In this document: piece after piece, positions 3,001 through 44,567 of the stretch
Layout of the letters: every line of letters starts with the position of its first letter
Position numbering within the stretch: position 1 is the first letter of the stretch
Assembly: GCA_013153895.1 (NCBI GenBank)
Contig: JAADDN010000168.1
Span: forward strand, 17,049-81,048
Length of the DNA: 64,000 nt
Direction of reading: 5' to 3'
Source of the DNA: Thermoproteota archaeon
Lineage (GTDB): Archaea; Thermoproteota; Thermoprotei; Thermoproteales; Thermocladiaceae
The notes under the pieces: generated by a model
Databases searched by the model: none
The model's input: the letters and a program-made list of their open reading frames with translations, nothing else
Told to the model about the DNA's origin: nothing
Made by a program: the position numbers and the translations under genes

Positions 3001-4763
3001 ATTAGATCATTAACCATTTCAGTACTTAACAGAGCATTAATAGATATCTCATTTCTAGACTTGACAATTCTCCACTTTATTCCTGTGATTAATGCCCCAG
3101 GGGGAGCCCAAGCACCTGTTAAAGCGTGTGTTAAAGATGATTCAAGAAGAAATGATACAATATGAAACTCAAGTGCTGCAGCTCCATTAGAGAATGCTAC
3201 TCCGCTAACAACTGCAGGTGGGAACACTATGTCTACTGTTGGTGCCCCTGGAAGTACAAACCTTACATGGCTATTAATCTCTATTGACGGGAAGGAATAT
3301 GTCAGCCACATCCACTTTACAGAGATGTCTTTTACTCCTGTCTCAGCAAAATAATCATTAAACAAGATATCTACCGAGCCAACACGTACTCCTCTAAGGT
3401 ACTGACCATAATCCACCGTCTCTACATGCGCACTAACATCTTTATGTAGCCCCCATCCCCATGTTGTCGCTCCATACGCAAAAAGATGCACGTACCCAAA
3501 AGTCCTATAGACCACTCCTCTAGCTTCTGTAACCTTTATCTTAAATCCAGTAATAGCAAGACTATAGTTCCTACCCTCAAAACCAGATAACCTATTCACC
3601 AACGCGGTCAAGTTACCATTAAACGGAATCTCTAGATCACCCCAAACAAACAACGTAGGGCGGGTAATATTAGTCTCAACAGCTAGGTACACTCCTGTAG
3701 TAGTTGAAATAATTATATCACGAATACCTATACTCGAGATCCATATAGGTATGCCACTCACTTTAAAGTAAGATATCTGATAAACATTTCCATTACTAAT
3801 AGTATAAACATGAACAATACCTTCTCCATCCCCCGCTATTATATATGTATTATTTCCTTCTTTAACAGTTCTTACAACATAGAAACTTCCAGGTTCTCTA
3901 AATACTACTCCGAATGTTGGTGTAAGCACATATAGACCATTCATAGAAGCAACAACAATATATCTATTGTCTATAGTTTTAATATCCTGTATAAATCCTC
4001 CTAGATATGTTTTATCTACTATATCTAAAGATGGAGATACTTTAAGCAACCATCCATCATATGAACCAGCTAGTAAGTACCCACCTATGCTAGAAAATGC
4101 ATAAAACTGTGAAGAGAATGGAACAAGCTTAATCATTTTTCCATTAGATGCATCATATACTATAAATCCTTTAGCGGTCTCTAAAGTAGATACTAGGTAT
4201 CCATTCCAATAATAGACTGTATAACCTTCTGAATTGAATGGCAATGTTTTATTCCAGATTAATCTTGTTCCACATATCTTTCCTACTACATGCCCACATG
4301 TTGTTCCAAAGTACACACACCTTCCATCCGTAGTTAACCAGACCCCTTCTAGATCACCTATAAGTACATCTGCCTCTACAGATAATGACGGCAAAGATAT
4401 AGCAAATACATGTCCTTCTCCTGATCCTCCTCTATGAACTGTTGCATATAGTGTATTTCCAAGAAGGAGAAGTTGCCTAGCACGTATCATTGGGGCTTCA
4501 GCTCTAAATGCGAATCCTGGAGCGTTAAGTGTTATACATTTAACTTTTTTTAATGAAGAAATATCTACCATACATATACTTAATGGATATGCATTATATA
4601 TTATATAATTTCCATATACTACATTTGTTGTACTCGGCTTGTCTGATAAAGTATATACAACGTAGTAGAAAAATAATGTATTATTGCTTGCCGTTACTGC
4701 ATGCACCTTACATGCAAGTATTAACAGTATAAGAACAGTTATTACTAGAAGAAGCTTCCTCAT
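1..4763 (-). CDS. Very large secreted surface protein, C-terminus beyond the window (>=1587 aa here): signal peptide, possible beta-propeller region, Gly-rich linker, three prealbumin/CarboxypepD_reg-like repeats
   Basis: Absent from the ORF track because it has no stop inside the window. Manual reverse-strand translation from the ATG at 4763-4761 gives MRKLLLVITVLILLILACKVHAVTASNN... and stays open to position 1, with 2 nt left over. Linker GGISISGGGGGVSGGGVTGGGGAPP. Repeats such as PVIVMVMYEDGTPFQGADVTIVTSSGGKISGKTDSEGKYETYV. Confidence 0.8.
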   Translation of the reverse strand, partial: MRKLLLVITVLILLILACKVHAVTASNNTLFFYYVVYTLSDKPSTTNVVYGNYIIYNAYPLSICMVDISSLKKVKCITLNAPGFAFRAEAPMIRARQLLLLGNTLYATVHRGGSGEGHVFAISLPSLSVEADVLIGDLEGVWLTTDGRCVYFGTTCGHVVGKICGTRLIWNKTLPFNSEGYTVYYWNGYLVSTLETAKGFIVYDASNGKMIKLVPFSSQFYAFSSIGGYLLAGSYDGWLLKVSPSLDIVDKTYLGGFIQDIKTIDNRYIVVASMNGLYVLTPTFGVVFREPGSFYVVRTVKEGNNTYIIAGDGEGIVHVYTISNGNVYQISYFKVSGIPIWISSIGIRDIIISTTTGVYLAVETNITRPTLFVWGDLEIPFNGNLTALVNRLSGFEGRNYSLAITGFKIKVTEARGVVYRTFGYVHLFAYGATTWGWGLHKDVSAHVETVDYGQYLRGVRVGSVDILFNDYFAETGVKDISVKWMWLTYSFPSIEINSHVRFVLPGAPTVDIVFPPAVVSGVAFSNGAAALEFHIVSFLLESSLTHALTGAWAPPGALITGIKWRIVKSRNEISINALLSTEMVNDLINMIDHPDKLKLVEPAVSPGKGDPVVTIGGVFPVPRSSWRYLTALPIGFPRGLAPLWKAVVMSVLNHDAVDIVKICLGENMTKKDCIKMWDRLMSNRAYLDNVRSRALGIWKYWMKAAEGEYIDKILKKFEKEHKKIGVTFSISALFPGITLRQIAQEILGSRLAQAGGIATLAIILGDVVGNAIYHPEWIFGRTVFYGVVTIPYVLVDACWGAYSPSGTHCGIYMVFGDHLNDIISKIQNNLAVRIRGVSADDVKKLLYDIITTHVITSSNTPGYYRFAGSLAIRLVNGSYVIETDSGPLYPDEILGTGTLVFVFTTYTQGFFGALGQLIYAGLHNVFHTNPTYFYDGFRAITHIAAIYIKYNVIKDPKVIAQIVENMLKVKYGNLISNVTCVPEKHYAECTIYFSVPLRRFIVTGLQHFIINGKVITTFLFIRNCTPVSYGNMSKAGYRCELVYYPPKKAPKNTVFRVEKIGIFAIPSPAYFIEYYWKIGKTAMSGIAWVNKSLEKKIGMIFGNSTIWQAYVHYGSLFNLNGTRKFRNMTLDYFITYNRSLIVQLGGGYLVPGSVYSFTVWRTLPLDVGIVRIFINGSLTYSTIPHDVRVAVYSTVTQNVSVLFHFYLGANINGSLYIAYDLGNATVNFTAYGDHVTLSPRVPIAGVVSKMLQYLPILSAKYNNTILIVVAKIIHAEYDAVKSNDIYKTWVTLPPAKHGPALLIVHVYDPYSGKNIANATVTVYALPGFVKIKSEKTNTSGIAVFIVKMFNKYEIDVSYDSYSPYESTIYVTNRTTIINVALVSNGGISISGGGGGVSGGGVTGGGGAPPAVTGRHVSKYPVIVMVMYEDGTPFQGADVTIVTSSGGKISGKTDSEGKYETYVKAGVRINITVVAHVDGKVFTHSWSNIVVTHGIYLKYIIPTYAPPPTVNKTAILVIYTVNPVDKKPVSNVKLAVIYGSRKIIKETNKSGIAVVTGLRTGTTVNVTVLSVPRGFFVMKKVYAVILRN

Positions 4764-4802: not shown

Positions 4803-7448
4803 TTATGTTTGTTTGAACATTTTTCTTCTTTTTTGTGTTATTATGCTTGTTTTATGTGCTAGGAGTATCAGTATTATGGCTATTATTGTTAGTGTGGCTA
4901 TTCCTGTTATTATGATTATTGGTGTTTTTTTCTGTGATATATTTATCTTTATTTTCATGTTACTGTTCTCAAATATTGTGCTGTTTCCTGCTGTTTCAAG
5001 TATTATTGTTCTGTTACATGATGGCATGGTTAGCATGAAGTTTCCATGTTTGTCTGTTCTTGTTGTGTTAATTATCTGTCTATTATTGCAGTATTCTACT
5101 GCTCTTATCTCTATGTTGGGTATTGGTGTAGCATTGTAGTCTACTACTGTTCCATTTATTACTACTTTTCCATTTACTGTTCTTGTTTTAACATTTTTAA
5201 ATATTAATGATACCTTATATATGGCTATTATAGTCATATTGTTTGGTTTCATTATTACTATACTTGTCTTATTTGCTAGTGGTAGCCCCAGCTTAAGTAC
5301 TCCTGCATGTACTGTCTTCTGTAGTGTTATGTTTGTTCCTGGGCACTTCCATATATGTAATATCTTTATTATTCTTCCTAATGCATCGCGTATTATTATT
5401 GTTAGGTTGTAGAGGTCCTCTATTATTGTTCTGTTGCTTCTGCAGTATACTTCTGCTATTGTCTTATTTTTTAATAGTAGTTTACATTTTCCTTCTATTA
5501 TACCTATTTTTGGTGGTAATGTACCATTTATGATTAGAGTGTAATTCGTAGAGTTTGCTAGTACTAGTGTCTTGGCGTATGGATAGATCTTTACTAGTGG
5601 TATCAGGGTAATGTTTATTGTAGCATTTGCAAGTATTGTTCTCTCTCCCTTATACGTTACTATTCTATGGATGTTGCATCTTGGTATTACTGTCACATTC
5701 ATATGAAAAGCATCTATTCTTGCTTTAGCTATACATATAGGTACGTGTATGAAATGTATCTTTATTGTCCAGTTTCCAGCTGTGAGGTTTGCTAGTCTAA
5801 TTATCTTCAGACACTTCAGTTTAATTGCCCTTCCACAGCATTCTGCATATATAGTTCCATGACATATTGGTGTTATAATGGTCATATTTGGTATAACGGT
5901 TTTTAGTCCTGTAGCTAGGTAGCCGAGAACTACGTTTCTTAGGTCTCTGTAATATACTGTTAGTATTGTTGGTCTTCTCACTATGAAGCATATCTCTGGT
6001 CTGTGAATGATGAGTGTCCTGTTTGTAACTACTTTCCATGTCTTGTTAATGTATTCTGCTATTACTATTCTTGGGTTAAATAGTCTGAACCATCTGTTTA
6101 TTAGACAGATATGACTCATGTTTGCTACTGTGTAGGTAGTGTTGAATCTTACTTCTCTACCGTCTATATATATTATTGTGTTGTTATATATATTATATAT
6201 CTTTCCTGCTATGTTTGGTACACCCATTAGATCTTTAATGTAGCATTCTATTGTTCCTTCTACAGGTTCCCAACATTTCTTCTCTCCTTTCGCCATTCTT
6301 ATTGTTGTGTTAATGTTCTCTGGATACCATATATGTCCATATGTTCTTATCCATGTAGTATTTATTCCAAACATCATTCCACAATATATCCATCTTGATC
6401 CATCATAGATATCGCATGGCACGTTCATTGTCATGTTTTTCATAAATGTAAACCACACTCCATTTATTGATAAACTGCCTCTTGACCATGTTGTCGCGTT
6501 TATTATGACCCAGATATAGCTAGTGAATACAGGTGAGTTAATTCTGGCTCTGTTGCCACAGTACTCTTTTATGGTTCTGTTGCTCAGCATAACTTTTACA
6601 CATATTTGATATTTGATGGATCCTCCTACTGTAATGTTAGCAGTATAGTTTATTAGTCTCATTATATATGATGGAAGGTATAGTAAATATTCTAGTATTC
6701 CCTCATTTAAATATCCTGACTCGTTATATGTGTCTATTAGTGCTACATAATCAATATTAACATAGTATGGATATTTAACATTGGTATAATTGTAACATAT
6801 CATCGTCATATTTATCTTACCAGTATAGTTAAGTGCTGGTACATGTATCCAATAGATCTCCCTTGTATTTGTCAGATTAATTGTTCGTAGGAAAGTCTTC
6901 TCTGGATATGTCATAGATAGGTTACATGCATATCCTATACTGCTTCCACCTACCGCTATTATTAGCCATGTCTTTTCTGTCTTTGATAGATATGGCTGTC
7001 TTACTTTGAAGACTAGTAATATTGTCTTGTTTGGACTATCTATCATATATTTGATATATTTTCCATCTAGCTTCCATATTAGACTGGTATTGAATATTCC
7101 TGTACTACTAATGTTTGTAATAGTTATTGATGGTATATATGTTATGTTTACTTTCCTTGAATAGAGCTCTATCTCATATATTCCCTGTTCTGGTGAATAT
7201 ATTGGCGCTATATTTGGCATCCCAGTCCTATAACTAATTTTTGTGTTCATTGGTGGAATAAAAAGAACATTATATATGAAGGTCAGATTGTATCTGAACC
7301 CGTTAGGTATGTTCCATGTCACAACTATTGGCGTCGCTATGTTAGATGGTAGTGGCTGTATTACTCTTATCTGTGCATTAACCATGCATGCTATAGCTAT
7401 TGCCAGCGCTAGCACTAGTATTAGACCTATCTTACCTATCTTATCCAT
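4803..7448 (-). CDS. Type I membrane glycoprotein (881 aa), surface or envelope protein
   Basis: Signal peptide MDKIGKIGLILVLALAIAIACMVNAQ. C-terminal TM helix IIIITGIATLTIIAIILILLA followed by a basic tail ending QKRRKMFKQT. Very many N-x-S/T sequons. CarboxypepD_reg-like segment VVINGTVVDYNATPIPNIEIRAVEY...TDKHGNF. Confidence 0.85.
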   Translation of the reverse strand: MDKIGKIGLILVLALAIAIACMVNAQIRVIQPLPSNIATPIVVTWNIPNGFRYNLTFIYNVLFIPPMNTKISYRTGMPNIAPIYSPEQGIYEIELYSRKVNITYIPSITITNISSTGIFNTSLIWKLDGKYIKYMIDSPNKTILLVFKVRQPYLSKTEKTWLIIAVGGSSIGYACNLSMTYPEKTFLRTINLTNTREIYWIHVPALNYTGKINMTMICYNYTNVKYPYYVNIDYVALIDTYNESGYLNEGILEYLLYLPSYIMRLINYTANITVGGSIKYQICVKVMLSNRTIKEYCGNRARINSPVFTSYIWVIINATTWSRGSLSINGVWFTFMKNMTMNVPCDIYDGSRWIYCGMMFGINTTWIRTYGHIWYPENINTTIRMAKGEKKCWEPVEGTIECYIKDLMGVPNIAGKIYNIYNNTIIYIDGREVRFNTTYTVANMSHICLINRWFRLFNPRIVIAEYINKTWKVVTNRTLIIHRPEICFIVRRPTILTVYYRDLRNVVLGYLATGLKTVIPNMTIITPICHGTIYAECCGRAIKLKCLKIIRLANLTAGNWTIKIHFIHVPICIAKARIDAFHMNVTVIPRCNIHRIVTYKGERTILANATINITLIPLVKIYPYAKTLVLANSTNYTLIINGTLPPKIGIIEGKCKLLLKNKTIAEVYCRSNRTIIEDLYNLTIIIRDALGRIIKILHIWKCPGTNITLQKTVHAGVLKLGLPLANKTSIVIMKPNNMTIIAIYKVSLIFKNVKTRTVNGKVVINGTVVDYNATPIPNIEIRAVEYCNNRQIINTTRTDKHGNFMLTMPSCNRTIILETAGNSTIFENSNMKIKINISQKKTPIIIITGIATLTIIAIILILLAHKTSIITQKRRKMFKQT

Positions 7449-18477: not shown

Positions 18478-19812
18478 CAGAAACAGAAGAAGAGAAAAAA
18501 TAAAAACAAAACACTAAACACCAACACACAGTAATAACCCAAAAAACAACAGAAAAATACACCAAGGAACAAAACAACAAACCAAAACAAAACACCACAA
18601 AAATGCGAGTAATACCCACAAAATAAAAACACACCAAGGAACAAAACCGAGTCACACTCCACATTCTCCCCCAGTTCACAGACTAAACCACCCACCAAAA
18701 CTATACACTCTTTCCACACAACACCAAAACTTGTGAACTCCCAACCTCCCTACTTCGCGTAAGTATCTCCCCCGCTACATTAAATACGAGTGCGCCCCCG
18801 CCTTCACGGGTTGTGGAAAATCTCGCAAAATAACATCTCTCTACATGTCAAAAATAAACGATTAAAAACCAATTATGATAATGCTCACACAGACTTAAAA
18901 TAACAATAAAACACAAAAACATACAACCTTAAAAACCCAAAAGAAAAAACATCAACACACAACAAAAAACAATAAGACACAACAGAACAAGATACTTCAT
19001 ACCCCACATTTAGATACCAATAACATGAAAACGAGACCTTCACACCATATATTCTACAAGGCTACCATAAACTCCACAAGAAAACAAACAACTCCACAAG
19101 AAACATCATTACAAAAATCAATTAGCCCTAATTGACCAATGCATTACTCATCAATTAGAGATGCATTATGGTAGAATTGAAATATTAATGCATTCTCAAT
19201 TGACCACCAATTAACCCCCCAGCCGAGAATACATTAACTCTCAATTGAAGCTAATGCATGAAGAATAGAAACAAAATCACAGAAAGTACATGACAAGACC
19301 AAACACCCTAAAAAGAAAACAACACTCCCAAACCAGAACACCTGTGAAAAACATATACGTAATACCACACAAAAATACAAAAACAAACTTAATTAAACAG
19401 CAAAATAATAAATTAAAAAGAGAACGAAACAACACACAGAGGTTTTCTAAAGACAAACCATACACAACTACACAGAAAACAGCAGAAAACAAGTAAAACC
19501 AATAGAATAAATATACCAATAAACCATAAACTCTAGAAAACAAACAGCACTAGAAAACTAATAACATTGATAAAACATGTATAAAAACAATCAAAACAAT
19601 ACACCACACCAGACAGAATAACCATACAATAGACCACGTCGAAGATTATAACTCAAAGTAATACTACAATTTAAGAATAGAAAAACATAAAACATCATAA
19701 AAATACATTAAAACAATAATAACCATATATAGGTAATAAAGATCAAAATAAGACATAAATAAAGTAAAAAGATATAAAAGAAGACTAACATACATGAAAG
19801 AACATATGTACC
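18478..19812. other. Non-coding arm, extremely A+C-rich on the + strand, with short internal repeats and ATGCAT/CAATTG motifs
   Basis: Positions 18481-18540 contain 51/60 A+C (counted). ACACCAAGGAACAAAAC occurs twice, and AACTCCACAAGAAA occurs twice in tandem near 19069-19104. AATGCAT occurs near 19138, 19187 and 19253. Confidence 0.7.
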
Positions 19813-20277
19813 TTATTGACGGCTTTTCAATATATTTATCCATGGATTATCCATTAAGTCCATTAGAATGTTATTATCATGTTTCTTCTCTGTATTACTC
19901 TCATTTTTATACTCTATCTTTTCTATACGTTCTCTAATGTATGATTTATCTATTTTTGATGAAAGTTCTTCAATTTTTCTTTCAAGAATTTCAATCCTAT
20001 TTTGTAAACTTTTAACTATAGTATACATATCTATACTAGACCTATCTTCTACATACATTGCAGTATTATTCACATCTCTACATGATAGTATTTTTCTGAG
20101 GTATGAAGTATCTAGCCTAAATGCTATATCTCTCATAGTTTCTAAACCTAGATGATCTATAAGCAGTTTCACTATTTCCGCACCAAGTTCTATGATTCTA
20201 CTCTGAGAAACATGCAACATATCTGCTAACTGTTCTATAAGTTTTTTAGTATGCTCTCTTACTGTTAGTGTAGGCAT
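19813..20277 (-). CDS. Ribbon-helix-helix (CopG/Arc-like) DNA-binding protein with a coiled-coil C-terminal half
   Basis: MPTLTVREHTKKLIEQLADMLHVSQSRIIELGAEIVKLL fits a strand-helix-helix pattern. It is the only normal-composition ORF inside the 3.6-kb gap. Confidence 0.65.
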   Translation of the reverse strand: MPTLTVREHTKKLIEQLADMLHVSQSRIIELGAEIVKLLIDHLGLETMRDIAFRLDTSYLRKILSCRDVNNTAMYVEDRSSIDMYTIVKSLQNRIEILERKIEELSSKIDKSYIRERIEKIEYKNESNTEKKHDNNILMDLMDNPWINILKSRQ

Positions 20278-21082
20278 GTATATTATAGATATATGAGATA
20301 TATAAACATTCTTGATTAATCATGAAAGATGAGATTGATAATATTCATAAAATATATCTAAATTATATTTATCATGTAGACGTGTCGTCGTTCAACGTAT
20401 TACCGTACTAATATGATTCTATGTTTCTATTTCTAGAATATTGTTACATGTTTGATATAGTAGTTATAGATGGTTTTTGAAGGTTTATCTATATTATTTA
20501 GAATGTATATAAATGATGTGACTGACCAGGTAACAGAGTTGGTAGGGGTCTAGGACTACCTCATAGGATGGAATTGTTCTTCATTTTTTAATTGTTAATC
20601 TATGTATCTATATGTACTATAGGTTACATTTATTTTGTCTAGTTTTTAGACGTGGTTAAAATATTTATTTTCATGTATATACTTGTTACCGTGTTTTGTA
20701 TTATTTTCAGTGTTTTTAGAACGTTCTTATCAGTGTATAATATCTATTATCTATGCTATGTTATATGTATTATGATTATCTGTGTATATTATTCTCTTAT
20801 TATAACATGTTTGGGAGCTAATTGAAACTAATTGAAGTGAAGTTGGGTATTTTTCATGTTTTATATGTTCTATGTTTTTGTGTGTTGTTTTATGTGTTTT
20901 GTTGTTGTTTGATTGGTTTTTCTTTGGTCTTGGTTCTGTTTCTGGTCTGTGCTTGTTTTTGTGTTTTTGTCTTTTAGGATGGCATTTAATTGGACATGCA
21001 TTATATGTATTTTTATGTTGTTTTATGTACTTAATTAAACGTTAATTGATTTCTTGTTCCTGTTCTGTGATTTATTTTTGAT

Positions 21083-21121
21083 GGTTTATGTATTTTTGTG
21101 ATATACATTAGGGGTCAATTA
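21083..21121 (+). repeat. Iteron-like module, copy 1
   Basis: GGTTTATGTATTTTTGTGATATACATTAGGGGTCAATTA. Confidence 0.7.
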
Positions 21122-21243
21122 ACGTATGATTAAGTGTGTTAGTATTTATAAAAATACATTTAATGCATGCTCAATTAGGTCACTGGGTCTGAGTCTACGT
21201 GTCCGTTGGCTGTGCATTATGGTGTTAATATGTGATTATTATT

Positions 21244-21274
21244 GTATTTTTGTGAGATACATTAGGGGTTAATT
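21244..21274 (+). repeat. Iteron-like module, copy 2
   Basis: GTATTTTTGTGAGATACATTAGGGGTTAATT matches 21090-21120 at 29 of 31 positions (counted). Confidence 0.7.
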
Positions 21275-21315
21275 GGTCATGGTCCTATGTGGTAGTTGGG
21301 TGTGTTCTGATTGTT

Positions 21316-21334
21316 CAATTAGTCCCTAATGTAC
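21316..21334 (-). repeat. Inverted copy of the TACATTAGGG-N-CAATT core
   Basis: The reverse complement reads GTACATTAGGGACTAATTG. Another inverted core, CCTAATGTA, lies at 21507-21515. Confidence 0.6.
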
Positions 21335-21847
21335 TTGATAAAAGGTTATTGATGTATGTTTTTGGTGACCATAATGTATGGCTAATTATGTGTATGTTTT
21401 TGATCTTTTGTTATCATGTTTATTCGTTTAATGCATCTGCGGTTAGCTGGACTCTAGTGCAGCTAGTTATTTTATGTGTATTTATAACTTTTTATGATGG
21501 GGACGACCTAATGTATCCATGATGTGGTATTTTTCTCAAGTACATTGATATAATATAGGTTATAGATGTTTGTTATTGGTGTTTAATGTTTAGATGTTAG
21601 GTGATATGGAGTTGAAATGGGGGTTATAGAATTTCTATGTATTATTATACTGTTATGGTTATTAATGTTTTCTATTGTTTTTTATGTTTCTTAATTACTG
21701 GGTTTTCACAAGTTTTCTAGTTTGTGAATTGTTTCAGAATTTAAAATGTATAGTTATGTTGTTTTTTATATTTTTATGATATATGTCTGATATGTTTGTA
21801 TGTGGTTTATTGTTTTTGGTATCATGTTTTTGCTCTGTTTTTGTGTT

Positions 21848-21880
21848 GGTTTATGTATTTTTGGCAGGTACATTAGGGAG
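21848..21880 (+). repeat. Iteron-like module, copy 3 (more diverged)
   Basis: GGTTTATGTATTTTTGGCAGGTACATTAGGGAG. The first 15 nt are identical to 21083-21097. Confidence 0.6.
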
Positions 21881-22133
21881 TTTTGGAACAATAGTATTTG
21901 TTATTGTGTTTTTATGTTTTTGTTTGGTGTTTTGTGTTGTTTTTCGTGTTTGTGGTTTATTGTTTTTCATTGTTGTTTTGTTTTCTTTTCTATGTTTTGT
22001 TTCTCGGTTTTATGTCAATGTACTTCAGATTTTTGTTAGTGTTCTTGTGCTTCTAATGTGTTGGGGATCTGGCTGCAGGTAGTGCGGCTGTGCTGTATGT
22101 TCCTATTATTAATCTTGTTAGTTAGATAGTTCT

Positions 22134-22640: not shown

Positions 22641-23001
22641 GAGATATACTACTATAACAGTTGAACGTGAGGTGAAGGAGAAGCTTGAGGAGATTATACG
22701 GGAAGCTGTCGGCGAGGTCTCATGGAACGAGCTGTTTAGGAAGATGGTGAGCAATAGAACGCTTACATTATCCTATATTAGGAAGCTGTATGCAGGCATA
22801 GTAGAGGAGGATCTTCTAAAGATAATGGTAAACATAGTAGAACTGTTATATATATCAATGAGGAAGAATGGACAGTTAAAAGATAAGGAAACTAGAATAC
22901 TACTATATTTAACGGTTAGAAATATTAGAGAGAAATTGAAGGAGCATGGTATGGAGGATGAACGGGTAGAGAGAATATATGAGGAGCTTACAGGAAGCTA
23001 A
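22633..23001 (+). CDS. Hypothetical protein, possibly with an RHH-like N-terminus
   Basis: ATG overlaps the end of the dUTPase gene. TTITVEREVKEKLEEIIRE has a strand-helix pattern. Confidence 0.6.
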   Translation: MSRRYTTITVEREVKEKLEEIIREAVGEVSWNELFRKMVSNRTLTLSYIRKLYAGIVEEDLLKIMVNIVELLYISMRKNGQLKDKETRILLYLTVRNIREKLKEHGMEDERVERIYEELTGS

Positions 23002-23309
23002 TCACTATAGAACATTGGTCTAATCTTCTCACCGATCTCAACATCTTTAACATGTCTCTCAACTACTATAAAGCTCCTAGACTCCTCATCATATATAGCT
23101 ACGAACCTCGTAGGATGAAGCTCATGAGAGATAAATGCAGCAGCCCAGGGAACCCTAGTAACTATACAGTATCCCCTGTTAAGCGGTAGCTGTCTAAGCT
23201 CTCTCTCAAGATACTCGAAGACTTCCCTAGTAGGCTGTAGCTCTCTATCATTAACCTCTATAACTGTACATGGTTCTGCTGGTATTATCCTGAGAAGGTT
23301 CCTCCTCAT
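22998..23309 (-). CDS. Divergent Csx3-like protein (second copy)
   Basis: VTRVPWAAAFISHELHPTRFVAIYDEESRSFIVVERH aligns with the ISGRGPxWL...FVAVYDPR...VVV core of Csx3. It is the last gene of the operon with 23351-23641. Confidence 0.55.
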   Translation of the reverse strand: MRRNLLRIIPAEPCTVIEVNDRELQPTREVFEYLERELRQLPLNRGYCIVTRVPWAAAFISHELHPTRFVAIYDEESRSFIVVERHVKDVEIGEKIRPMFYSD

Positions 23310-23350
23310 TGAAGAAAGAGGTGTGGAGGAGACTGAGAAATCTTACCCTC

Positions 23351-23641
23351 CTATTCTAGCTTGAACATCTGTCCTCTCATTGGTCCTGAAGTTACTATAC
23401 AGGCATTCATTCTCGGCTCATATGTTGCAACTATGTCACCCTCCTTAGCAAGCTCTATGCTGAGAGCAGAGTATAGCCATACTGGTCCTCTCCCTGATAT
23501 GCATACTGGCTTCTCGCTCTTTATCTCAGGCATTGACTGTATCACCTCATTAAGCTCTGATGGCTCTAGTATTCCACCCTCTATCTCGAACTTCAGTAGT
23601 AGAACATTCTTCTTGTCCTCGACCTCCCATCTAACTGGCAT
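23351..23641 (-). CDS. csx3: Csx3 (Crn3-type cyclic tetra-adenylate ring nuclease) homolog
   Basis: 96 aa. KFEIE, CISGRGPVWLYSAL and VATYEPRMNACIV are collinear with A. fulgidus Csx3 as I recall it (HFEIE, ISGRGPIWLHCFL, VAVYDPRLGAVVV). Confidence 0.75.
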   Translation of the reverse strand: MPVRWEVEDKKNVLLLKFEIEGGILEPSELNEVIQSMPEIKSEKPVCISGRGPVWLYSALSIELAKEGDIVATYEPRMNACIVTSGPMRGQMFKLE

Positions 23642-23666
23642 ATGTACATGTACTATGATTCTCTTA

Positions 23667-24305
23667 TTAAGAATTATCTCTGTTTCTCATCTTCTCCTCA
23701 TCATATACGAACATTACTATCCTCATTGTCAGCCTGTTAACAGCATCTTTAAGAGGTAGTGGTGGACTAGGAGCATTCTCTCTTGTGAGACCAGTAAGAA
23801 TACATGTACCTGTCTCAAAGTCTACTCTCGGCTCTCCCTCTAGAGCTGACTCGCATATAGCTACTATATCTACGTTAGGAGTCCTCGATTTTATCTGGTT
23901 AACCCATCCCATCACACAGCTCTCAAAGTCATCTCTCCTGCATAGCACTATGACGCCATCAACATTTCTAAGAATCTTCTCGTTCTCAGCTGTTACTCTT
24001 ATAGGAGGCTTTCCTCCTCCTATATCTACTATAACAATATCAATATTATTATTCTTTCTAAGACCCTCCAATGATCTGACAATCCATTCAAGCTTCTTCT
24101 CAACATTCTGTCTAGATATCTCTTTCAACCTAGTCCTAAGCTCCTCTCTAAGAGACTCTAAGTACCAGGGAGGAGTAGGACTATATAGCTCAGCATCTTG
24201 AAACATTGTTCTTATACCTGACTCTGCAAGTGTACGATATATTAAATGTGATAGAACGCTCTTACCAGTATTGGGATCACCTACAACACCTATAATCCTA
24301 GCCAT
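23667..24305 (-). CDS. P-loop NTPase (SIMIBI-like), possibly a Clp1/Grc3-type polynucleotide kinase
   Basis: Walker A VVGDPNTGKSV and Walker B-like VIVDIGGG. The kinase assignment is inferred only from resemblance to the GxxDxGKS...DxGQ pattern. Confidence 0.7.
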   Translation of the reverse strand: MARIIGVVGDPNTGKSVLSHLIYRTLAESGIRTMFQDAELYSPTPPWYLESLREELRTRLKEISRQNVEKKLEWIVRSLEGLRKNNNIDIVIVDIGGGKPPIRVTAENEKILRNVDGVIVLCRRDDFESCVMGWVNQIKSRTPNVDIVAICESALEGEPRVDFETGTCILTGLTRENAPSPPLPLKDAVNRLTMRIVMFVYDEEKMRNRDNS

Positions 24306-24339: not shown

Positions 24340-25476
24340 ATGAGCTTCTACCCTACAGAGCAGGAGAAGGAGAGCATACGTGTAATGATAGATGGACTGA
24401 TAGATCTGTTGAGAAGAGAGCTGGAGAGGAGAGGAGTACGGTTCTATAAGATAGTTCCAGGAGGCTCAACAGCACAGGGAACCTTCCTACATGGTGATCA
24501 TGATATAGATATTTTCATAGTAACATCAGAGCCAGACAGAGCAATCAGAGTAGTCAGAGAGCTGTTTCCAAGAGGAGTCGAGAAGAAGGGAGAGCTAGAG
24601 ATATGGAACACACATGTAGACGATTATAATATTGATATAGTAGCAGTTAATCCAGAAACCGTAGAAAGATGGTTCACACTTAAACATACTGAGATCTATT
24701 CAAAGATGAGTAATGAACAGAAAAGAATAGCGATAGCACTGAAGGCACTGTTCAAAACATGGTGCGCATATGGAGCAGAGAACGGGGGAATAAGTGGAGT
24801 AGCAGTTGAGGAGCTCGTGAGAAGATTCACAGAGCCAGGAGATACCGTAGACAGAGGAATAGTCAAAGTATGTGAACAGATAGTCATACATGAAGAACCA
24901 TTCTGGCTGCAGGACCCAGCAGCAGAGAGACATGGAATACCTAGGAACCTCCTAGCATCAGTAGTAGAAGAAAAGTGGAGCCTACTACAGAAAGCGTGTA
25001 TAGAATATTTCAACACACGTCAGATACCATATACACCACCAGGAGCGGAGAAATATAGATTCATAAGAGAAAGCGAGGGATGGAAAACAATACAGCTAGA
25101 ATCAACAGGAAACAAGCACCTAGACTTCCACAAGACCAGAAGCATCTGCATAACATACTGTAACAAGCTGAGAAACAGTGAAAAAGATGTACAAGAATGC
25201 ATCTGCGACTCATATAGCGATGGAAAGAAGGTGATAGTAGCAGTAAAAGTACCAGAACAGTTACCACCATATAGGACAGTCTGCATAGAGCCTTGGAAGA
25301 TAGGTAGAGAAGCAGTAGAAAATTTCATAGAAAAGCATCCAGATTATTATATAGATAATTATGGTAGAATATGTACAACAGTACCAAGAAAAATAACAAG
25401 ACCATTCGAATATATTAAACAAAACATAGAGAAAGAATGGGAAAGATATCTAAAAGAGAAGACAAGACACAGCTAG
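24340..25476 (+). CDS. cca: Class I (archaeal-type) CCA-adding tRNA nucleotidyltransferase homolog
   Basis: GGSTAQGTFLHGDHDIDIFIV (GS...DxD), IDIVAV, ERWFTLKHTE, ALKALFKTWCAYGAENGGISGVAVEELV and FWLQDPAAERHGIPRNL are collinear with A. fulgidus CCA enzyme motifs. Confidence 0.75.
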   Translation: MSFYPTEQEKESIRVMIDGLIDLLRRELERRGVRFYKIVPGGSTAQGTFLHGDHDIDIFIVTSEPDRAIRVVRELFPRGVEKKGELEIWNTHVDDYNIDIVAVNPETVERWFTLKHTEIYSKMSNEQKRIAIALKALFKTWCAYGAENGGISGVAVEELVRRFTEPGDTVDRGIVKVCEQIVIHEEPFWLQDPAAERHGIPRNLLASVVEEKWSLLQKACIEYFNTRQIPYTPPGAEKYRFIRESEGWKTIQLESTGNKHLDFHKTRSICITYCNKLRNSEKDVQECICDSYSDGKKVIVAVKVPEQLPPYRTVCIEPWKIGREAVENFIEKHPDYYIDNYGRICTTVPRKITRPFEYIKQNIEKEWERYLKEKTRHS

Positions 25477-25650: not shown

Positions 25651-26934
25651 TTAGAATATGCTACACGACCCACCTAGCGGACAGATATCAGGTACATAGA
25701 GCCTACTATCAAACATGTTGAAGTGATATAAGTGACCACTCTCTAACAGTCTCTTACATAGGTTTCTTCTAGTTATTTTCGATAGATAACATATGTCCCA
25801 GCTCGCGAAGTCACCACCAACATACTTAAACGATAATTTCTCCAATAGTGGCTTAAGGAACCAGAAGTATACCTTTTCTGGCGGTACCTGTGCTAGCTCT
25901 GGTATTGTCGGCTTATACATTAATGGCAGTATCGATAGTCTAGACTCTATATAGCTTGCAGAAGCATAGTCGAGACCCATAGTAATATCTAGAACATCAT
26001 CATAAGCCGTATCTCTATCTTTCCAACATGCTAGAACCATCAGACACGTCTTAACGTCAAGATCATTAAGTAGCTTAAACGTGTCAGTAATATACTTCAA
26101 GTCATGTGCAACATTTATCAGACCCATATTCTGCATCCACTTTGGTCTAAATGACCATCCAATACATATCTTACTCATATCTACATCATTGTTCTCTAAT
26201 CTGCTAACCAACTCAAACGGCATTGATGTTGAGATCGTGTAGTATGTATATACGTCCATTATGTTTCTACCACGTCTATCATAGAACTCAATTATGTAAT
26301 CACAATACTTGTTTAGATCAACACTGTATCCACTTGGTAGATCCATGCCACGTATAATATATCTTAGATCAGTTACGCGGTATAGGTCATCTATTAAATC
26401 ATTAAGCACTAGATATGGCTCACACGACCCACCAAATGATATCGAGAGATGATAAGTCGGTGGAAGCCCCCTACTATTCTTCTCTCTAATAGTCCTATAA
26501 AGAAGCTTAAGCAGTAGATTCCTTACGGCAGATACGGTCCCAGACTTAACACATGTTACATATCTCGTCCTAGAACCATAGCCTGGCGACTGAGCATAAC
26601 AGAATCTGCATCCTATTGGGCAAGTTCTCTTGTATGATACTACGAGCATTATAGCACTATCATAATCATTATCCTCAATATCTAGGTAAAAATACTCAAA
26701 ACCATTTCCACCTAATGAAGCAATTGGCAGATCACTATCCTGCCTATAATCATCTATAGTTGTAATTATTTTCTCACTACCTCTAACATATATATCATAT
26801 AGCAATCTATCAGCATCTCGTATATTTAAGACATCATCAGCAGATGAACCTCCATAACTATTATCACTATACTTTATACTCAATCTTAATCTAGAACAGT
26901 TGAACTGTATTTGAGAAAGAACCAACTTCCTCAT
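25651..26934 (-). CDS. Radical SAM enzyme with an N-terminal extension of about 100 aa and a C-terminal Cys cluster
   Basis: CPIGCRFCYAQ (CxxxCxxC) at about residue 104. Four Cys in the last 50 aa or so (DICY...NLCK...DICPLGGSCSIF). Confidence 0.85.
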   Translation of the reverse strand: MRKLVLSQIQFNCSRLRLSIKYSDNSYGGSSADDVLNIRDADRLLYDIYVRGSEKIITTIDDYRQDSDLPIASLGGNGFEYFYLDIEDNDYDSAIMLVVSYKRTCPIGCRFCYAQSPGYGSRTRYVTCVKSGTVSAVRNLLLKLLYRTIREKNSRGLPPTYHLSISFGGSCEPYLVLNDLIDDLYRVTDLRYIIRGMDLPSGYSVDLNKYCDYIIEFYDRRGRNIMDVYTYYTISTSMPFELVSRLENNDVDMSKICIGWSFRPKWMQNMGLINVAHDLKYITDTFKLLNDLDVKTCLMVLACWKDRDTAYDDVLDITMGLDYASASYIESRLSILPLMYKPTIPELAQVPPEKVYFWFLKPLLEKLSFKYVGGDFASWDICYLSKITRRNLCKRLLESGHLYHFNMFDSRLYVPDICPLGGSCSIF

Positions 26935-27369: not shown

Positions 27370-28206
27370 TTACTTGAGTTCTCTCTTCACATGTTTTAGC
27401 ATCTGTCGAACTTTCTCTCTATTCGGCAGCTCATAGTTATGTTTTCTGCATTCTTCTTCTATGTATCTCCATACGTTATTTATCGAAATAGTCTCAATCC
27501 TTCTACCCTTACTTGTTAATTCCATTATTGCTGTCCTAAGAGCATTAAGAATCTCATGGTCAGGTAAGACATCTCTCTTCACCTCTTCAATTTTCTTTCC
27601 TTCTAGAGCATCTAGTAACAGTTTCCACTCGTTCCTGTTCTCCCACTTAATCTTAAGACCAATGAACCTCCTCTGATAAGCTCTCCTCAGACCAGGATAT
27701 CTTGAACTTCCAGTAAATCCATATAACTTGACTATTACTCCCTCTACCTTTCTACCAAGTTCATTCAGTTTCTTAACTGCGAAGTCTATTGCCTGTCTTA
27801 GATCATTAAATGTCCAGTATTCTACCACCTTAAGATCATCCCTTCTAAGATCATCAACATATCTCTCAAGAGGCTCTAGTGTATAGATATCAAATACGCG
27901 ATAATCATAATCACCTTCCCATCCCTCTCTAAAACCTGCTGGAGAGTTCTTTAGTCCACCAAACTCAAAATAGAAATCGTATCTAGACTTCAATATTTCT
28001 GGAAATCTTTCCCTGATAATTTTCATTAAGTTGTCTGGTATTGGATTTAGATTACGAGTATATAACATATCGCCAAATTTTAGAATATTCGCACCATCAT
28101 ACTTCGGCTCAACATATATAACATCAAGCCTTGACTCATTGTTAAGTACTGAATAGATTACCTTTACAAACTCCTTCGGGTTTAAAAGTTCAGGATACTT
28201 TCTCAT
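27370..28206 (-). CDS. ATP-dependent RNA ligase-like nucleotidyltransferase (minimal, no OB domain)
   Basis: Motif I EPKYDGANI (KxDG), III FYFEFGG, IIIa YRVFDIY, IV EGVIVKL, V IGLKIKW. The helical C-terminal 70 aa replace a DNA-ligase OB fold. Confidence 0.8.
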   Translation of the reverse strand: MRKYPELLNPKEFVKVIYSVLNNESRLDVIYVEPKYDGANILKFGDMLYTRNLNPIPDNLMKIIRERFPEILKSRYDFYFEFGGLKNSPAGFREGWEGDYDYRVFDIYTLEPLERYVDDLRRDDLKVVEYWTFNDLRQAIDFAVKKLNELGRKVEGVIVKLYGFTGSSRYPGLRRAYQRRFIGLKIKWENRNEWKLLLDALEGKKIEEVKRDVLPDHEILNALRTAIMELTSKGRRIETISINNVWRYIEEECRKHNYELPNREKVRQMLKHVKRELK

Positions 28207-39996: not shown

Positions 39997-40314
39997 ATGT
40001 ATAGTAAGGTCCTAGCTGAGAAGTCTAGTGTTAGTAGTCTAGTTGTTCCTGATCAGATATTTATGTTTGGTAGTTATATATGTGGTAGAGTGTTTATAAA
40101 TGATGAAGTAGACTTAGAGACATATCAGAGAATAGAGGATGAGATGTATGGTATAGCTGTCCTAGAATCGGACAAGGAGCCTGAGAACAGGGTAAAGGTG
40201 AGAAGCATTGTAACATGTATACGAGGCATAGGTGAGAGAAATCTGAATGATCTAGCTAGGAGTATAGTGATAGCTTACATAAATCTGAGAGATATGTATA
40301 GGATGAGAAGATGA
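39997..40314 (+). CDS. Hypothetical 105-aa protein
   Basis: ATG start. Its stop overlaps the next start (ATGA). Confidence 0.7.
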   Translation: MYSKVLAEKSSVSSLVVPDQIFMFGSYICGRVFINDEVDLETYQRIEDEMYGIAVLESDKEPENRVKVRSIVTCIRGIGERNLNDLARSIVIAYINLRDMYRMRR

Positions 40315-41336
40315 GCCTATCACAGTCTCTTCTAAGGATTGAGGAGGAGCTTAGGAATCTTGCAACAGAGCTGCAGGAGGCTAGGACTGGGAGAGATACA
40401 TATAGTGGGGACAGGTTTCTAGAGGTCTATCATAAGCTTGTAGATGTTAATCTGAAGCTTGAGAGCATCTATAGGACGTGTCTAGAACGTTCAGAGACGG
40501 AGAAGCCGTTACAGCTCTTCTGTAGGTTGATATATAATATATATCTAGGATTGAATGATCTTATACATGACATGAATAAAAATTGTAATGTATCTAATGG
40601 AGTATTTACATGTCTTAATATTAATGTTGAGAAGATTAGAAGAGAACTATGTAACAATGTTCTAGAGCTGACTGGAAGAAAATGCGGTAACCTGATACTC
40701 TATGATACGAGCCTTCAGCCACCAGCAATTATAGATGGCATAGCTAACTGTGTACATGTACTAGCTGAGGAGCTGATGAAGATGGAGACCTGGAGAAGAG
40801 TAGGAAGATGCTACTTGAATGAGAACTCTAGCAGAAGCATTGTAGAGCTCTGTGAGAAGTGGAGCGAGTATATTAACAGGTTCGATCCATATTATATGAG
40901 TGAGGATATTGAGAACGTTTTCGGATATGGTATAGATGGTAAAGCATATTTTAGAGTAGGATCAGCAGCGGGACATGCAGCAAATATAGATTTTAACAGT
41001 GGGACATTCACATATTATGATAATGATCTTAATGTTGTATCTCTAGTACATACATATGTTGAAAAGTATATGAATGGTGCATGCATGTTTAATAGAGAGA
41101 ACAGTGAATTAAAATGTACTATACCGAATATTGATAAGAAGATAGATGATATAGCATATCTCCTAGCATCTGTAACCAGCATGGATATTAGACTAGCAAA
41201 CGCTAATGTAGATGCTAAGAAGCTTATACCGATAAAGATAGCAAAGTCAACATATAACTATGATAGAGAGATAGCATTAGAGAAAGGTCTCGAGAACACT
41301 TCTAGAACATATATAACAGTTCTAGGAGGAGAGTAG
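40311..41336 (+). CDS. Family-A protein, copy 1 (paralog of 43566-44567)
   Basis: Shares TGRxCGNLxLY..S.Q.PAxIDGxANCxHVxAEEL, RVGRC and RVGSxxGHAxxIDF with copy 2. Confidence 0.85.
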   Translation: MSLSQSLLRIEEELRNLATELQEARTGRDTYSGDRFLEVYHKLVDVNLKLESIYRTCLERSETEKPLQLFCRLIYNIYLGLNDLIHDMNKNCNVSNGVFTCLNINVEKIRRELCNNVLELTGRKCGNLILYDTSLQPPAIIDGIANCVHVLAEELMKMETWRRVGRCYLNENSSRSIVELCEKWSEYINRFDPYYMSEDIENVFGYGIDGKAYFRVGSAAGHAANIDFNSGTFTYYDNDLNVVSLVHTYVEKYMNGACMFNRENSELKCTIPNIDKKIDDIAYLLASVTSMDIRLANANVDAKKLIPIKIAKSTYNYDREIALEKGLENTSRTYITVLGGE

Positions 41337-41337
41337 T

Positions 41338-42243
41338 ATGGAGCCGATACATGTTAAAGAAATTATAAACAGGATAGCTGAGACCGTTAGAGACCTCGCT
41401 AGAGTAAAAACATGTTTAACATCTAATAATAGGAGAGAAGAAGTATCATGCCTATTAGACCTATATGAGAGAAGAGATAGACTGCTCGCACTTGTAGATG
41501 ATTTGAAGAAGCTTGCAGTAGCAGCACGGTACTTATATGGTCCAGAGTTCGGATACGTTCTCTACTATGTTAATAATATGGCTAGAGATGTTGACAAGAT
41601 AGTGAAGACGTTGGACTATGAGATAAATAGCTCAACTATAAGAAAGATGCCTACGAGACTTATAGCCCATGAGATAGGTGATGAATTGCAGGAACTAGTT
41701 ATTAACATGGTAGAGCTGGCAGACGTGTTGAGAAGACTTGGAAATGAGGATCTCTACATCTATGGTACATGTATCATACGTGGAGAACCTAGAACAGATC
41801 TGAAAACACGGTACATATGTGCAGGAGGACCTACACCACTTATAGTTGACAGAGATAAGATAGTTACATATGGAATAGACTTCCAGGGAAAAGAATATGC
41901 AGCAGAGCTTAGAGACCATGAGATAAAGCTAGAGTTTGAACTGCCTGTACTAGAGACTGGGAGAGAGTATTACCATGAGATACTTCCAAAAGATATGAAA
42001 TGTGAATCAACTATAGATGAGGAAGCTGGAACGCTAGTATATACATGTAGAGGAACAGTGCCAGATATGAAGGAGATTCTGAAAAATATTGAGCTAGCAA
42101 GAGAGCTTGAATCAATATCTCCACCACATGTAGAGAACATTCTTAGAGACACAATGCTTAGAGGAATGGAGATAGATAAGAACATGCCACTAGACATGAA
42201 CTGGAGAAGAGCACTCAAGCTGTCACTACCATTACCAGGGTAG
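41338..42243 (+). CDS. Family-B protein, copy 1 (paralog of 44564-45418)
   Basis: NEDLYIYGTCIIRGEP compares with NEDLHIYSGCIVRGRP. It holds the same position, right after the family-A gene. Confidence 0.85.
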   Translation: MEPIHVKEIINRIAETVRDLARVKTCLTSNNRREEVSCLLDLYERRDRLLALVDDLKKLAVAARYLYGPEFGYVLYYVNNMARDVDKIVKTLDYEINSSTIRKMPTRLIAHEIGDELQELVINMVELADVLRRLGNEDLYIYGTCIIRGEPRTDLKTRYICAGGPTPLIVDRDKIVTYGIDFQGKEYAAELRDHEIKLEFELPVLETGREYYHEILPKDMKCESTIDEEAGTLVYTCRGTVPDMKEILKNIELARELESISPPHVENILRDTMLRGMEIDKNMPLDMNWRRALKLSLPLPG

Positions 42244-43565: not shown

Positions 43566-44567
43566 ATGGAGCTATCTAACATAGTTAGCGAGATGATGAG
43601 GATTGAGGAGGAGCTTAGGAATCTTGCAACAGAGCTGCAGAAGTCCAGGATCGAGAGGAACGAGTATGTTTATGATATTCAGAATGTTAAGAAGGTTTTA
43701 AATAATATATGTGAGAAGCTTAACAAGATTAGTGAGGAGCCGTGTGCGGATATGATATCTAACATATTGAAAAATATGGTAGATCTTGCATATGATTATA
43801 TTTCTACTATATGTAATAGGGAGGATGGTTATTATAAATGCTCCAACATTAGTACAAGAGAATTTAGAAAGTTTATAGAAGAATTTGAGAAAGTTACGGG
43901 TAGAACATGTGGGAACCTTCTACTCTATATGGACTCGGTCCAGCTTCCTGCTGTTATAGATGGACTTGCTAACTGTATACATGTTGCCGCTGAGGAGCTA
44001 GCTAAAATTAACAAACATGGTAGGAGAGTTGGTAGATGCATCATAGTTGGCTATGCTGATCCAAGGATCATAGAGCTATGTAAAAAGTGGACGGATCTTG
44101 TAGAGAAGTATCATAATATGGGTATCTACCTGGAGGAGGATTATAATAGTCTTATAGGTATTGGAAGAGGACTCTCTCTTGATCTACGTGTAGGTTCCTC
44201 TCCTGGACATGCAATGAAGATAGATTTTAAGAATGGTACACTGAAATATTATGATTCTGATATGAATGTTATAGATACTGTACGAGTATTCATAGAGAAG
44301 CATCTAGATGGGTCATGTATGTATGATTATGCGAACCAGGAGCTGACATGTAGGTTCGATCCAGGTGCTGATAAGGTATCTGACAAGCTTGCATGGATTG
44401 CTGCTAATGTTACAAGTCTAGATGTTTACCTTGATGATGAGATTCCCGAATATATGAAGGATAGAGTATCCTCAGCTGCCCGTTCTGTACAGTTGAACTA
44501 TGAGGAGGCTAGTATGAGTATTAGAGAGATGATGGATAAAGCTAGTAGAATGGTGATGCTAATATGA
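43566..44567 (+). CDS. Family-A protein, copy 2
   Basis: See 40311-41336. Contains the 42-nt stretch identical to copy 1. Confidence 0.85.
   Translation: MELSNIVSEMMRIEEELRNLATELQKSRIERNEYVYDIQNVKKVLNNICEKLNKISEEPCADMISNILKNMVDLAYDYISTICNREDGYYKCSNISTREFRKFIEEFEKVTGRTCGNLLLYMDSVQLPAVIDGLANCIHVAAEELAKINKHGRRVGRCIIVGYADPRIIELCKKWTDLVEKYHNMGIYLEEDYNSLIGIGRGLSLDLRVGSSPGHAMKIDFKNGTLKYYDSDMNVIDTVRVFIEKHLDGSCMYDYANQELTCRFDPGADKVSDKLAWIAANVTSLDVYLDDEIPEYMKDRVSSAARSVQLNYEEASMSIREMMDKASRMVMLI

Follow-up and report, generated by a model that had tools for sequence, protein, structure and literature searches.

Can the active site of a ring nuclease be divided between two proteins encoded by neighbouring genes? 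This question is raised by a locus in a 64-kb stretch of archaeal DNA (the window), which corresponds to positions 17,383-81,382 of a 90,945-bp metagenomic contig (Joint Genome Institute (JGI) 3300005095, Ga0072504_101352), binned in a Thermoproteota ('Crenarchaeota archaeon') metagenome-assembled genome (MAG). The locus encodes a P-loop nucleoside triphosphatase (NTPase) and two paralogues of the ring nuclease Csx3, here called A and B. We put the probability at roughly 55% that A and B make up one heteromeric ring nuclease of the Csx3/Crn3 family, its active site split between them, likely an anti-CRISPR of a mobile element.

In A. fulgidus Csx3 (AfCsx3), the catalytic residues form two half-sites on opposite faces of the dimer (Athukoralage et al. 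2020, eLife, PMC7371418). On one of them, the D69 face, I22, S44, G45, R46, I49 and R71 bind cyclic tetra-adenylate (cA4), and D69 is essential; the other, the H60 face, carries H57, H60 and H80, termed 'absolutely conserved' by the same authors, who proposed H57 and H60 as Mn2+ ligands (PMC7371418); H80 pins a cA4 2'-OH from this side. Two successive dimers enclose the substrate, one contributing its D69 face and the other its H60 face. The H60A and D69A variants are each inactive, and a mixture of both regains activity; H60A binds cA4 without cleaving it (PMC7371418).

The gene trio and its two Csx3 paralogues

The locus comprises the following genes:

23667-24305, minus strand: P-loop NTPase of 212 amino acids, a stand-alone homologue of the Csx3-AAA ATPase domain
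23351-23641, minus strand: Csx3 paralogue A, 96 amino acids, with only the D69 face intact and without histidine
22998-23309, minus strand: Csx3 paralogue B, 103 amino acids, with only the H60 face intact

They follow one another on one strand in the order NTPase (NPA70759.1), A (GXO26_08110) and B (GXO26_08105), with spacers of 25 nucleotides between NTPase and A and 41 nucleotides between A and B, as three separate open reading frames (ORFs) with stop codons rather than one polypeptide. An earlier note, made from these letters alone, had described the three genes and both spacers, and the ORF read-out showed this to be exact. It had also quoted motifs of A (FEIE, ISGRGPVWL and ATYEPRMNACIV) and of the NTPase (GDPNTGKS and VIVDIGGG), all of which are present in the translations, and had named A as a Csx3 protein and B as a second copy, which the comparisons below bear out.

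The Pfam model Cas_csx3 (PF09620, gathering score 21) matched A with 49.7 bits (E 3.4e-13) and B with 34.8 bits (E 1.5e-08), and several Csx3 models of PADLOC were matched as well, with E-values of 6e-15 for A and 1e-9 for B; the NCBIfam equivalog cut-off of 55.4 bits was missed by both (44.5 and 28.8 bits). Residues 4-85 of the 96 in A align with AF1864, the A. fulgidus protein (PDB 6YUD/3WZI), with E 6e-12, and by this alignment A should adopt the Csx3 fold. For B, sequence alignment with the AfCsx3 chains in the PDB gave E 5e-4. A single-sequence AlphaFold2 run on B was poor (predicted local distance difference test (pLDDT) 60), and we used instead a model built from a 20-sequence alignment, with pLDDT 94.1 and a predicted template modelling score (pTM) of 0.86. 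A Foldseek search of the PDB with this model, a check that the earlier note had named, returned AfCsx3 entries for all 13 top matches (6YUD/3WZG/3WZH/3WZI/6VJG; TM 0.62-0.71, E ~4e-6 to 1e-5). A and B are both Csx3/Crn3-family proteins, and as paralogues they are ~20% identical.

Complementary half-sites

Residues of both faces were tabulated from an alignment of ten canonical Csx3 proteins (AfCsx3 and nine more) with six A-type and six B-type proteins. The positions in the window that correspond to these residues are:

23477-23497, minus strand: SGRGPVW loop of A, equivalent to AfCsx3 S44-W50, in which S44, G45, R46 and I49 contact cA4 (PMC7371418)
23411-23422, minus strand: YEPR of A, aligned with AfCsx3 Y68-D69-P70-R71, with E for D69 and R71 kept
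23142-23174, minus strand: GYCIVTRVPWA of B, degenerate and one residue short, aligned in place of the S44-G45-R46-G47-P48-I49-W50 loop
23115-23126, minus strand: HELH of B, equivalent to AfCsx3 H57 and H60, invariant in 6/6 B-type proteins
23052-23054, minus strand: H86 of B, equivalent to AfCsx3 H80, invariant in 6/6 B-type proteins

All ten canonical proteins have G45, P48, W50, H57, H60, D/E69, P70, R71 and H80. The A-type proteins keep one part of this set without exception, namely S44-G45-(R/H)46-G47-P48, W50 and (D/E)69-P70-R71 (6/6), and have H60 and H80 in none of the six and H57 in a single one. In the B-type proteins H57, H60 and H80 are present throughout (6/6), S44, G45, P70 and R71 are absent throughout (0/6), and the loop is shorter by one residue in five of the six; a GYC motif, with G46, Y47 and C48 invariant, is specific to this type. 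The two window proteins exemplify this division: A contains no histidine at all, with I, A and P at the positions of H57, H60 and H80, and the only histidines of B are the three at positions 62, 65 and 86, equivalent to H57, H60 and H80. At the D69-face positions B reads VTRVP-W and YDEE, and R71 is lost at the aligned position. Only as a pair do A and B carry the residues of both the D69 face and the H60 face. Since each protein retains only the face that the other has lost, A and B are, as judged from their residues, complementary half-enzymes and not one good and one decayed copy. The earlier note, which had spoken of a second, more diverged copy, missed this complementarity.

Conservation and linkage of the pair

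A word-indexed search with A retrieved A-type relatives at 90%, 66% and 52% identity and, after these, canonical relatives. With a profile of B, an exhaustive HMMER search through 1.84 billion representative proteins gave 12 matches at E <= 1e-3, of which four are B-type (P0014-P0017) and one is a low-complexity false positive, the rest being canonical. Together with the window and with P0008 from locus L001, these four clusters make up six B-type lineages, each with an A-type partner; a B-type protein was never found without one. In five of the six lineages, A and B lie within ~700 bp on one contig. The arrangements are:

Window: NTPase, A and B, all on the same strand
L001: A, then B; no adjacent NTPase
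L016: C-terminal end of an NTPase, then B; A convergent
L017: B, NTPase on the opposite strand, then A
L018: B, then A
P0014 (B) and P0002 (A): on different contigs, both present in SRR32234002, SRR33956859 and GCA_006243105.1

Gene order and orientation are shuffled among the lineages and the association of A with B is kept, and because it persists despite this shuffling, we take the two to be functionally linked. The pairwise identities of the A proteins and those of the B proteins across the six lineages correlate with r = 0.88, a value reached by 2 of 720 label permutations. B-type proteins are 23-63% identical to one another, yet all three histidines are retained, and the changes among the six never touch them. 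The ratio of nonsynonymous to synonymous substitution rates (dN/dS) of A is 0.09 against L001 and 0.21 against L002; purifying selection on A is strong. Neither ORF is disrupted in any lineage, and an NTPase accompanies the pair in three of them.

On L002 and on L003-L006, the A-type gene P0002 is followed not by B but by a gene (6396-6596 on L002) for a 66-residue protein with a zinc-finger-like CxxC...HxxxxH motif, conserved in the five contigs.

The NTPase and its bacterial relatives

Two nucleotide-binding motifs are recognisable in the NTPase:

24258-24281, minus strand: Walker A motif GDPNTGKS (GDPxxGKSV invariant in 12 homologues)
24012-24035, minus strand: Walker B-like motif VIVDIGGG (D94, G97 and G98 invariant in 12 homologues)

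Among PADLOC models it matched PDLC01515 (E 1.2e-13), PDLC01045 (Csx3-AAA, E 6.5e-11) and PDLC01059 (AAA-Csx3, E 9.3e-6); the names Csx3-AAA and AAA-Csx3 go back to clusters 35 and 67 of Shah et al. 2019. In a profile search it was 38% identical to the NTPase part of P0036, a 293-residue Csx3-NTPase fusion, and it shares 41-53% identity with stand-alone homologues and 51% with the NTPase that lies between B and A in L017. By these matches the protein is the ATPase domain of the Csx3-AAA family in stand-alone form. A sequence search of the PDB returned chance-level P-loop matches only, generic profile libraries gave weak P-loop matches only, and no recognisable effector domain appeared in the profile and PDB searches. 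The Walker A and DxGGG motifs, together with one JGI label 'CooC', hint at a MinD/CooC-like fold, 'AAA' being the label of the literature. The NCBI annotation of NPA70759.1 as 'glycosyltransferase family 4' conflicts with the P-loop motifs and with the homology to Csx3-AAA.

Among GTDB genomes, the NTPase domain was found at 24 loci of bacterial MAGs (L026-L049), from Kiritimatiellae, Lentisphaerae, Planctomycetota, Treponema, Patescibacteria and others. At most of them it forms the C-terminal part of proteins of ~430-480 residues, several of which carry two Csx3-like domains N-terminally by profile match, and others the same by eye. These fusions are set among type III genes, namely III-D Cas7, Csx1, CARF-PD-DExK, CARF-RelE and CARF-Lon. 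The L034 fusion has a canonical first and a degenerate second domain, whereas most others are degenerate in both. We considered whether the fusions might show the same complementarity as A and B and rejected this, because their second domain is degenerate on either face and the inspected domains include no B-type one. The precise complementary split was seen only in the archaeal pair and not in the bacterial fusions inspected. From sequence, the window trio is the split, three-gene counterpart of a known accessory family. The earlier note had called a paired Csx3 coupled to an NTPase uncharacterised; the association of Csx3 with this NTPase is known from the Csx3-AAA and AAA-Csx3 models, and the family is still experimentally uncharacterised.

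The replicon

We read 73.6 kb of the contig, that is, the 64-kb window and the 9.5 kb downstream of it to the contig end, the first 17.4 kb lying outside. No cas gene was found among 47 window ORFs scanned against Pfam, some of them also against PADLOC, nor in the 9.5 kb downstream, so that the absence of cas genes from these 64 kb, as claimed in the earlier note, is borne out and extended to the contig end. No CRISPR-like array was found in the window or downstream of it, and the window contains no tRNA, no Rfam match, and no rRNA, ribosomal-protein or core-metabolism gene. Family matches were obtained for only about a dozen of the 47 ORFs: three helicases, the ribonucleotide reductase NrdD, a Cdc48-like AAA ATPase, a subtilase, a GmrSD N-terminal domain, a TFIIB zinc ribbon, a dUTPase-like protein, a CCA-adding-like nucleotidyltransferase and giant secreted proteins with Ig-like repeats. 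Downstream of the window, genes for a resolvase and for an Rnl1-like ligase follow. Synteny extends to a 22-kb contig from another sample, which has a B-type gene, and on all the related contigs, too, cas genes are missing and unmatched genes abound. By gene content, the replicon resembles a large mobile element of archaea.

The description 'virus-like replicon' of the earlier note, however, could not be established. No recognisable virus hallmark gene was found in the parts of the contig read, and ten candidate structural proteins had no match among PHROGs. Searching 50,697 GenBank phage records with 20 kb of the window by megablast gave no relative, and tblastn of A, of the NTPase and of a conserved 462-residue protein against the same records found nothing, so that no similarity to phages or archaeal viruses in GenBank emerged; scans of IMG/VR with the B-type profile and two replicon proteins did not match the contig or its close relatives.

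Several other features of the replicon were noted. Next to the trio, at 24340-25476 on the plus strand, lies the gene of a divergent archaeal CCA-adding-enzyme-like nucleotidyltransferase (TIGR03671, E 2.6e-20, below cut-off); we tried it as a member of the module and rejected it, as it is adjacent only in near-identical contigs. At 27370-28206, minus strand, a minimal ATP-dependent ligase-like protein with a KYDG motif is encoded, which weakly matches DNA ligases in the PDB, and the T4 Rnl1-like ligase lies further along the contig (L011 12468-13772). Such repair-type genes near the Csx3 trio might counter RNA damage by defence nucleases. A 427-residue protein encoded at 25651-26934, minus strand, has a radical-SAM-like CxxxCxxC motif (CPIGCRFC) and no Pfam or PDB match; directly after A and B in L001 (2541-3830) lies a 429-residue gene without family match, a possible counterpart, and the gene may therefore be linked with the A-B pair.

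Elsewhere, ~3.6 kb at 18480-19800 and 20300-22100 are nearly free of ORFs and flank a gene at 19813-20277, minus strand. The strand composition of this region is mirrored, with A and C prevailing in its left part and G and T in its right part, and a ~30-nucleotide motif, GTATTTTTGTGAGATACATTAGGGGTTAATT, occurs there in three direct copies and one inverted copy; the region 18480-22100 could serve as an origin of replication or encode non-coding RNA. Two giant proteins, encoded on the minus strand at 3-4763 (>1587 residues, running off the window start) and 4803-7448 (881 residues), are secreted, with signal peptides and CarboxypepD_reg / Big_1 Ig-like repeats, and could be surface or virion-fibre proteins. 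Finally, a two-gene cassette appears to be duplicated at 40311-42243 and 43566-45418, encoding 341/301 and 333/284 residues, respectively, with similar N-termini (e.g. 'RIEEELRNLATELQ') and no family match.

Proposed mechanism and alternatives

In the mechanism that we favour, A would bind cA4 on its D69 face, and B would cap the bound ring with its histidine/metal face, completing the composite site, at which the ring would be cut to linear di-adenylate products. The assembly would be closed, A-cA4-B, unlike the head-to-tail filaments of canonical Csx3, because with the H60 face of A and the D69 face of B both dead, no filament could grow. Two stoichiometries are conceivable: an A2 dimer stacked on a B2 dimer, which would preserve every canonical contact, or, by analogy with the tandem-domain fusions, stacked A:B heterodimers. 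The NTPase probably binds the Csx3 pair and may either scaffold or recycle the complex, or itself be controlled by cA4. The biological role would be to quench the cA4 signalling of a host type III system as an anti-CRISPR, which is the most economical assumption, since the replicon resembles a mobile element and no cas genes were found in the parts read.

Several observations weigh against this interpretation. Contact between A and B is deduced from gene linkage and the known mechanism only. A has E and not D at position 69; P0005 and P0006, the closest fully canonical relatives of A, likewise have E there, and because these are fully canonical, the substitution is probably tolerated. B evolves ~6 times faster than A (dN 0.28 versus 0.05 between the same two genomes). 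No NTPase adjoins the pair in L001, and in one lineage A and B are themselves not adjacent, so that the NTPase is not obligatory. No B-type domain was found in the bacterial fusions that we looked at directly or that the Csx3 profile matched, and their mostly dead-looking domains favour, for the bacterial family, a sensor role. The cas-gene negative, moreover, covers 73.6 kb and not the first 17.4 kb of the contig or the rest of the MAG.

It is therefore worth asking whether the trio could be a cA4-sensing NTPase switch, in which A, with or without B, serves as the ligand sensor, the output is the action of the NTPase, whatever it is, and cleavage contributes no more than a minor, self-limiting activity. 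Allosteric control of the ATPase by the Csx3 domain is a prediction of Shah et al. 2019; most Csx3-like domains of the fusions lack the histidines and often R71, and so look like binders, and the bacterial fusions adjoin cA4-activated effectors in type III loci. In the archaeal proteins, however, the three histidines of B and R71 and E/D69 of A are strictly retained, which speaks for selection on catalysis and, as does the constant presence of A with B, against a switch as the complete explanation; A and B are also found as a pair with no NTPase adjacent, and the absence of a recognisable effector domain from the NTPase does not suit a switch either. We consider a sensor switch unlikely for the window trio.

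The genes might instead be an ordinary cellular accessory module, on a crenarchaeal chromosome or an integrated island, supplying the housekeeping ring nuclease in trans to a type III system elsewhere in the host. The binning of the contig in a Thermoproteota MAG, the lack of an IMG/VR match to it and of a virus hallmark in it, and the portion of contig and genome outside the parts read would all be compatible with this, and all characterised Csx3 proteins are cellular. Against it speaks the content of the 64 kb, where no tRNA, rRNA, ribosomal-protein or core-metabolism gene was found and most ORFs are unmatched, and where, with the downstream part, a resolvase, ligases, a dUTPase, NrdD and helicases form a profile typical of mobile elements; the related contigs are likewise cas-free and rich in unmatched genes. 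We consider a cellular module unlikely as well. That A and B form no joint enzyme, A being a non-catalytic cA4 sponge (a natural 'H60A', which in AfCsx3 binds cA4 and does not cleave it; PMC7371418) and B a metal-binding protein with an unrelated job, or both being decaying duplicates, would fit the fast evolution of B and the zinc-finger-like protein that follows A in its place in one lineage, but is very hard to reconcile with B-type proteins that are never found without A-type ones and co-diversify with them, with a loss of residues that is exactly complementary on the two faces, unlike random decay, and with ORFs intact in every lineage.

A split, heteromeric ring nuclease thus remains our preferred interpretation. 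It can be taken further, to a version that we hold only tentatively and at somewhat less than even odds: that the complementation between H60A and D69A has been fixed in nature, yielding an obligate, non-filamenting, hetero-oligomeric cA4 nuclease, often with an NTPase, as a new kind of type III anti-CRISPR in a family of mobile elements of Crenarchaeota, present in hydrothermal metagenomes. For canonical Crn3, cooperativity and no more than partial protection in vivo have been described; we speculate that a pre-assembled heteromer could escape the concentration-dependent cooperativity that limits it.

Should the split enzyme prove real, it would lend independent, natural support to the site of Crn3 between two stacked dimers, which now rests on one crystal lattice and one mixing experiment. 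A, B and A+B would offer a simple, defined system in which to dissect the two faces, and could trap a discrete enzyme-cA4 complex rather than a filament, while the NTPase, being a separate protein here, could be included or omitted at will and so would give access to the Csx3-associated NTPase, a protein listed as being of unknown function since 2018. On a replicon that proves to be a mobile element, the locus would be the first anti-CRISPR of Csx3 type.

Comparison with known systems

No Csx3 pair whose half-sites complement each other and no heteromeric Csx3 is described in the literature that we searched, which did not include the CARF classification of Makarova et al. 2020; what appears to be new here, on sequence grounds, is a split heteromeric Crn3 linked with the Csx3-associated NTPase. 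A Csx3 gene outside a cas locus is, by contrast, not unique to the window, because IMG/VR holds seven predicted viral contigs (L019-L025, 38-273 kb) with a stand-alone Csx3 gene. Both faces are kept in six of these, L025 being without the H60 equivalent, and in one or two large flanking ORFs scanned at each locus there was no match to a cas or CARF model. A survey published in 2025 covered 28,114 phage genomes without encountering a Crn3; the seven IMG/VR genes are candidate Csx3-type anti-CRISPRs, unreported in isolate phage genomes.

In its proposed role, that of a mobile element destroying cA4 to disarm type III effectors, the locus resembles AcrIII-1/Crn2 (DUF1874), which however has an unrelated fold, is metal-independent and acts as a single homodimeric protein; A, B and the NTPase have no Pfam match to DUF1874. 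The Csx3-AAA and AAA-Csx3 proteins, such as Synechocystis Slr7080, have an ATPase domain homologous to the window NTPase and the same linkage between Csx3 and NTPase, and the bacterial Csx3-AAA fusions, with two Csx3-like domains and one NTPase, even have the same number of parts as the trio. They differ from it in being one fusion, in another order, in bacteria and at type III loci, whereas the window has three genes, in an archaeon, with no cas gene found; a type III neighbourhood is present for the bacterial relatives and not for the window locus or its archaeal relatives. The fused Csx3-like domains are, moreover, mostly degenerate, whereas the Csx3 units of the window jointly hold the full catalytic set.

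The closest relative in mechanism would be AfCsx3/Crn3 itself (AF1864; PF09620, TIGR02579; 3WZI, 6YUD), with which the A/B pair has in common the fold, the family, the SGRGP loop, the (D/E)PR motif and the residues H57/H60/H80. By analogy, the composite site across two stacked units, the cA4 substrate and the Mn2+ dependence of AfCsx3 would be expected of the pair as well. Yet for a Csx3/Crn3 gene a place within or beside a type III (or type I) cas locus would be expected, and A and B lie outside any cas locus in the parts read; and AfCsx3 is one polypeptide with both faces, whose homodimers stack into filaments, whereas A and B have one face each, so that activity should depend on both proteins. 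The nearest experimental parallel is the mixing of H60A with D69A (Athukoralage et al. 2020), in which two proteins, each dead on one face, are active together. Those were laboratory point mutants of a single gene, each with the other face still present on every dimer; A and B, diverged paralogues with several changes on each dead face, may represent the same arrangement in nature.

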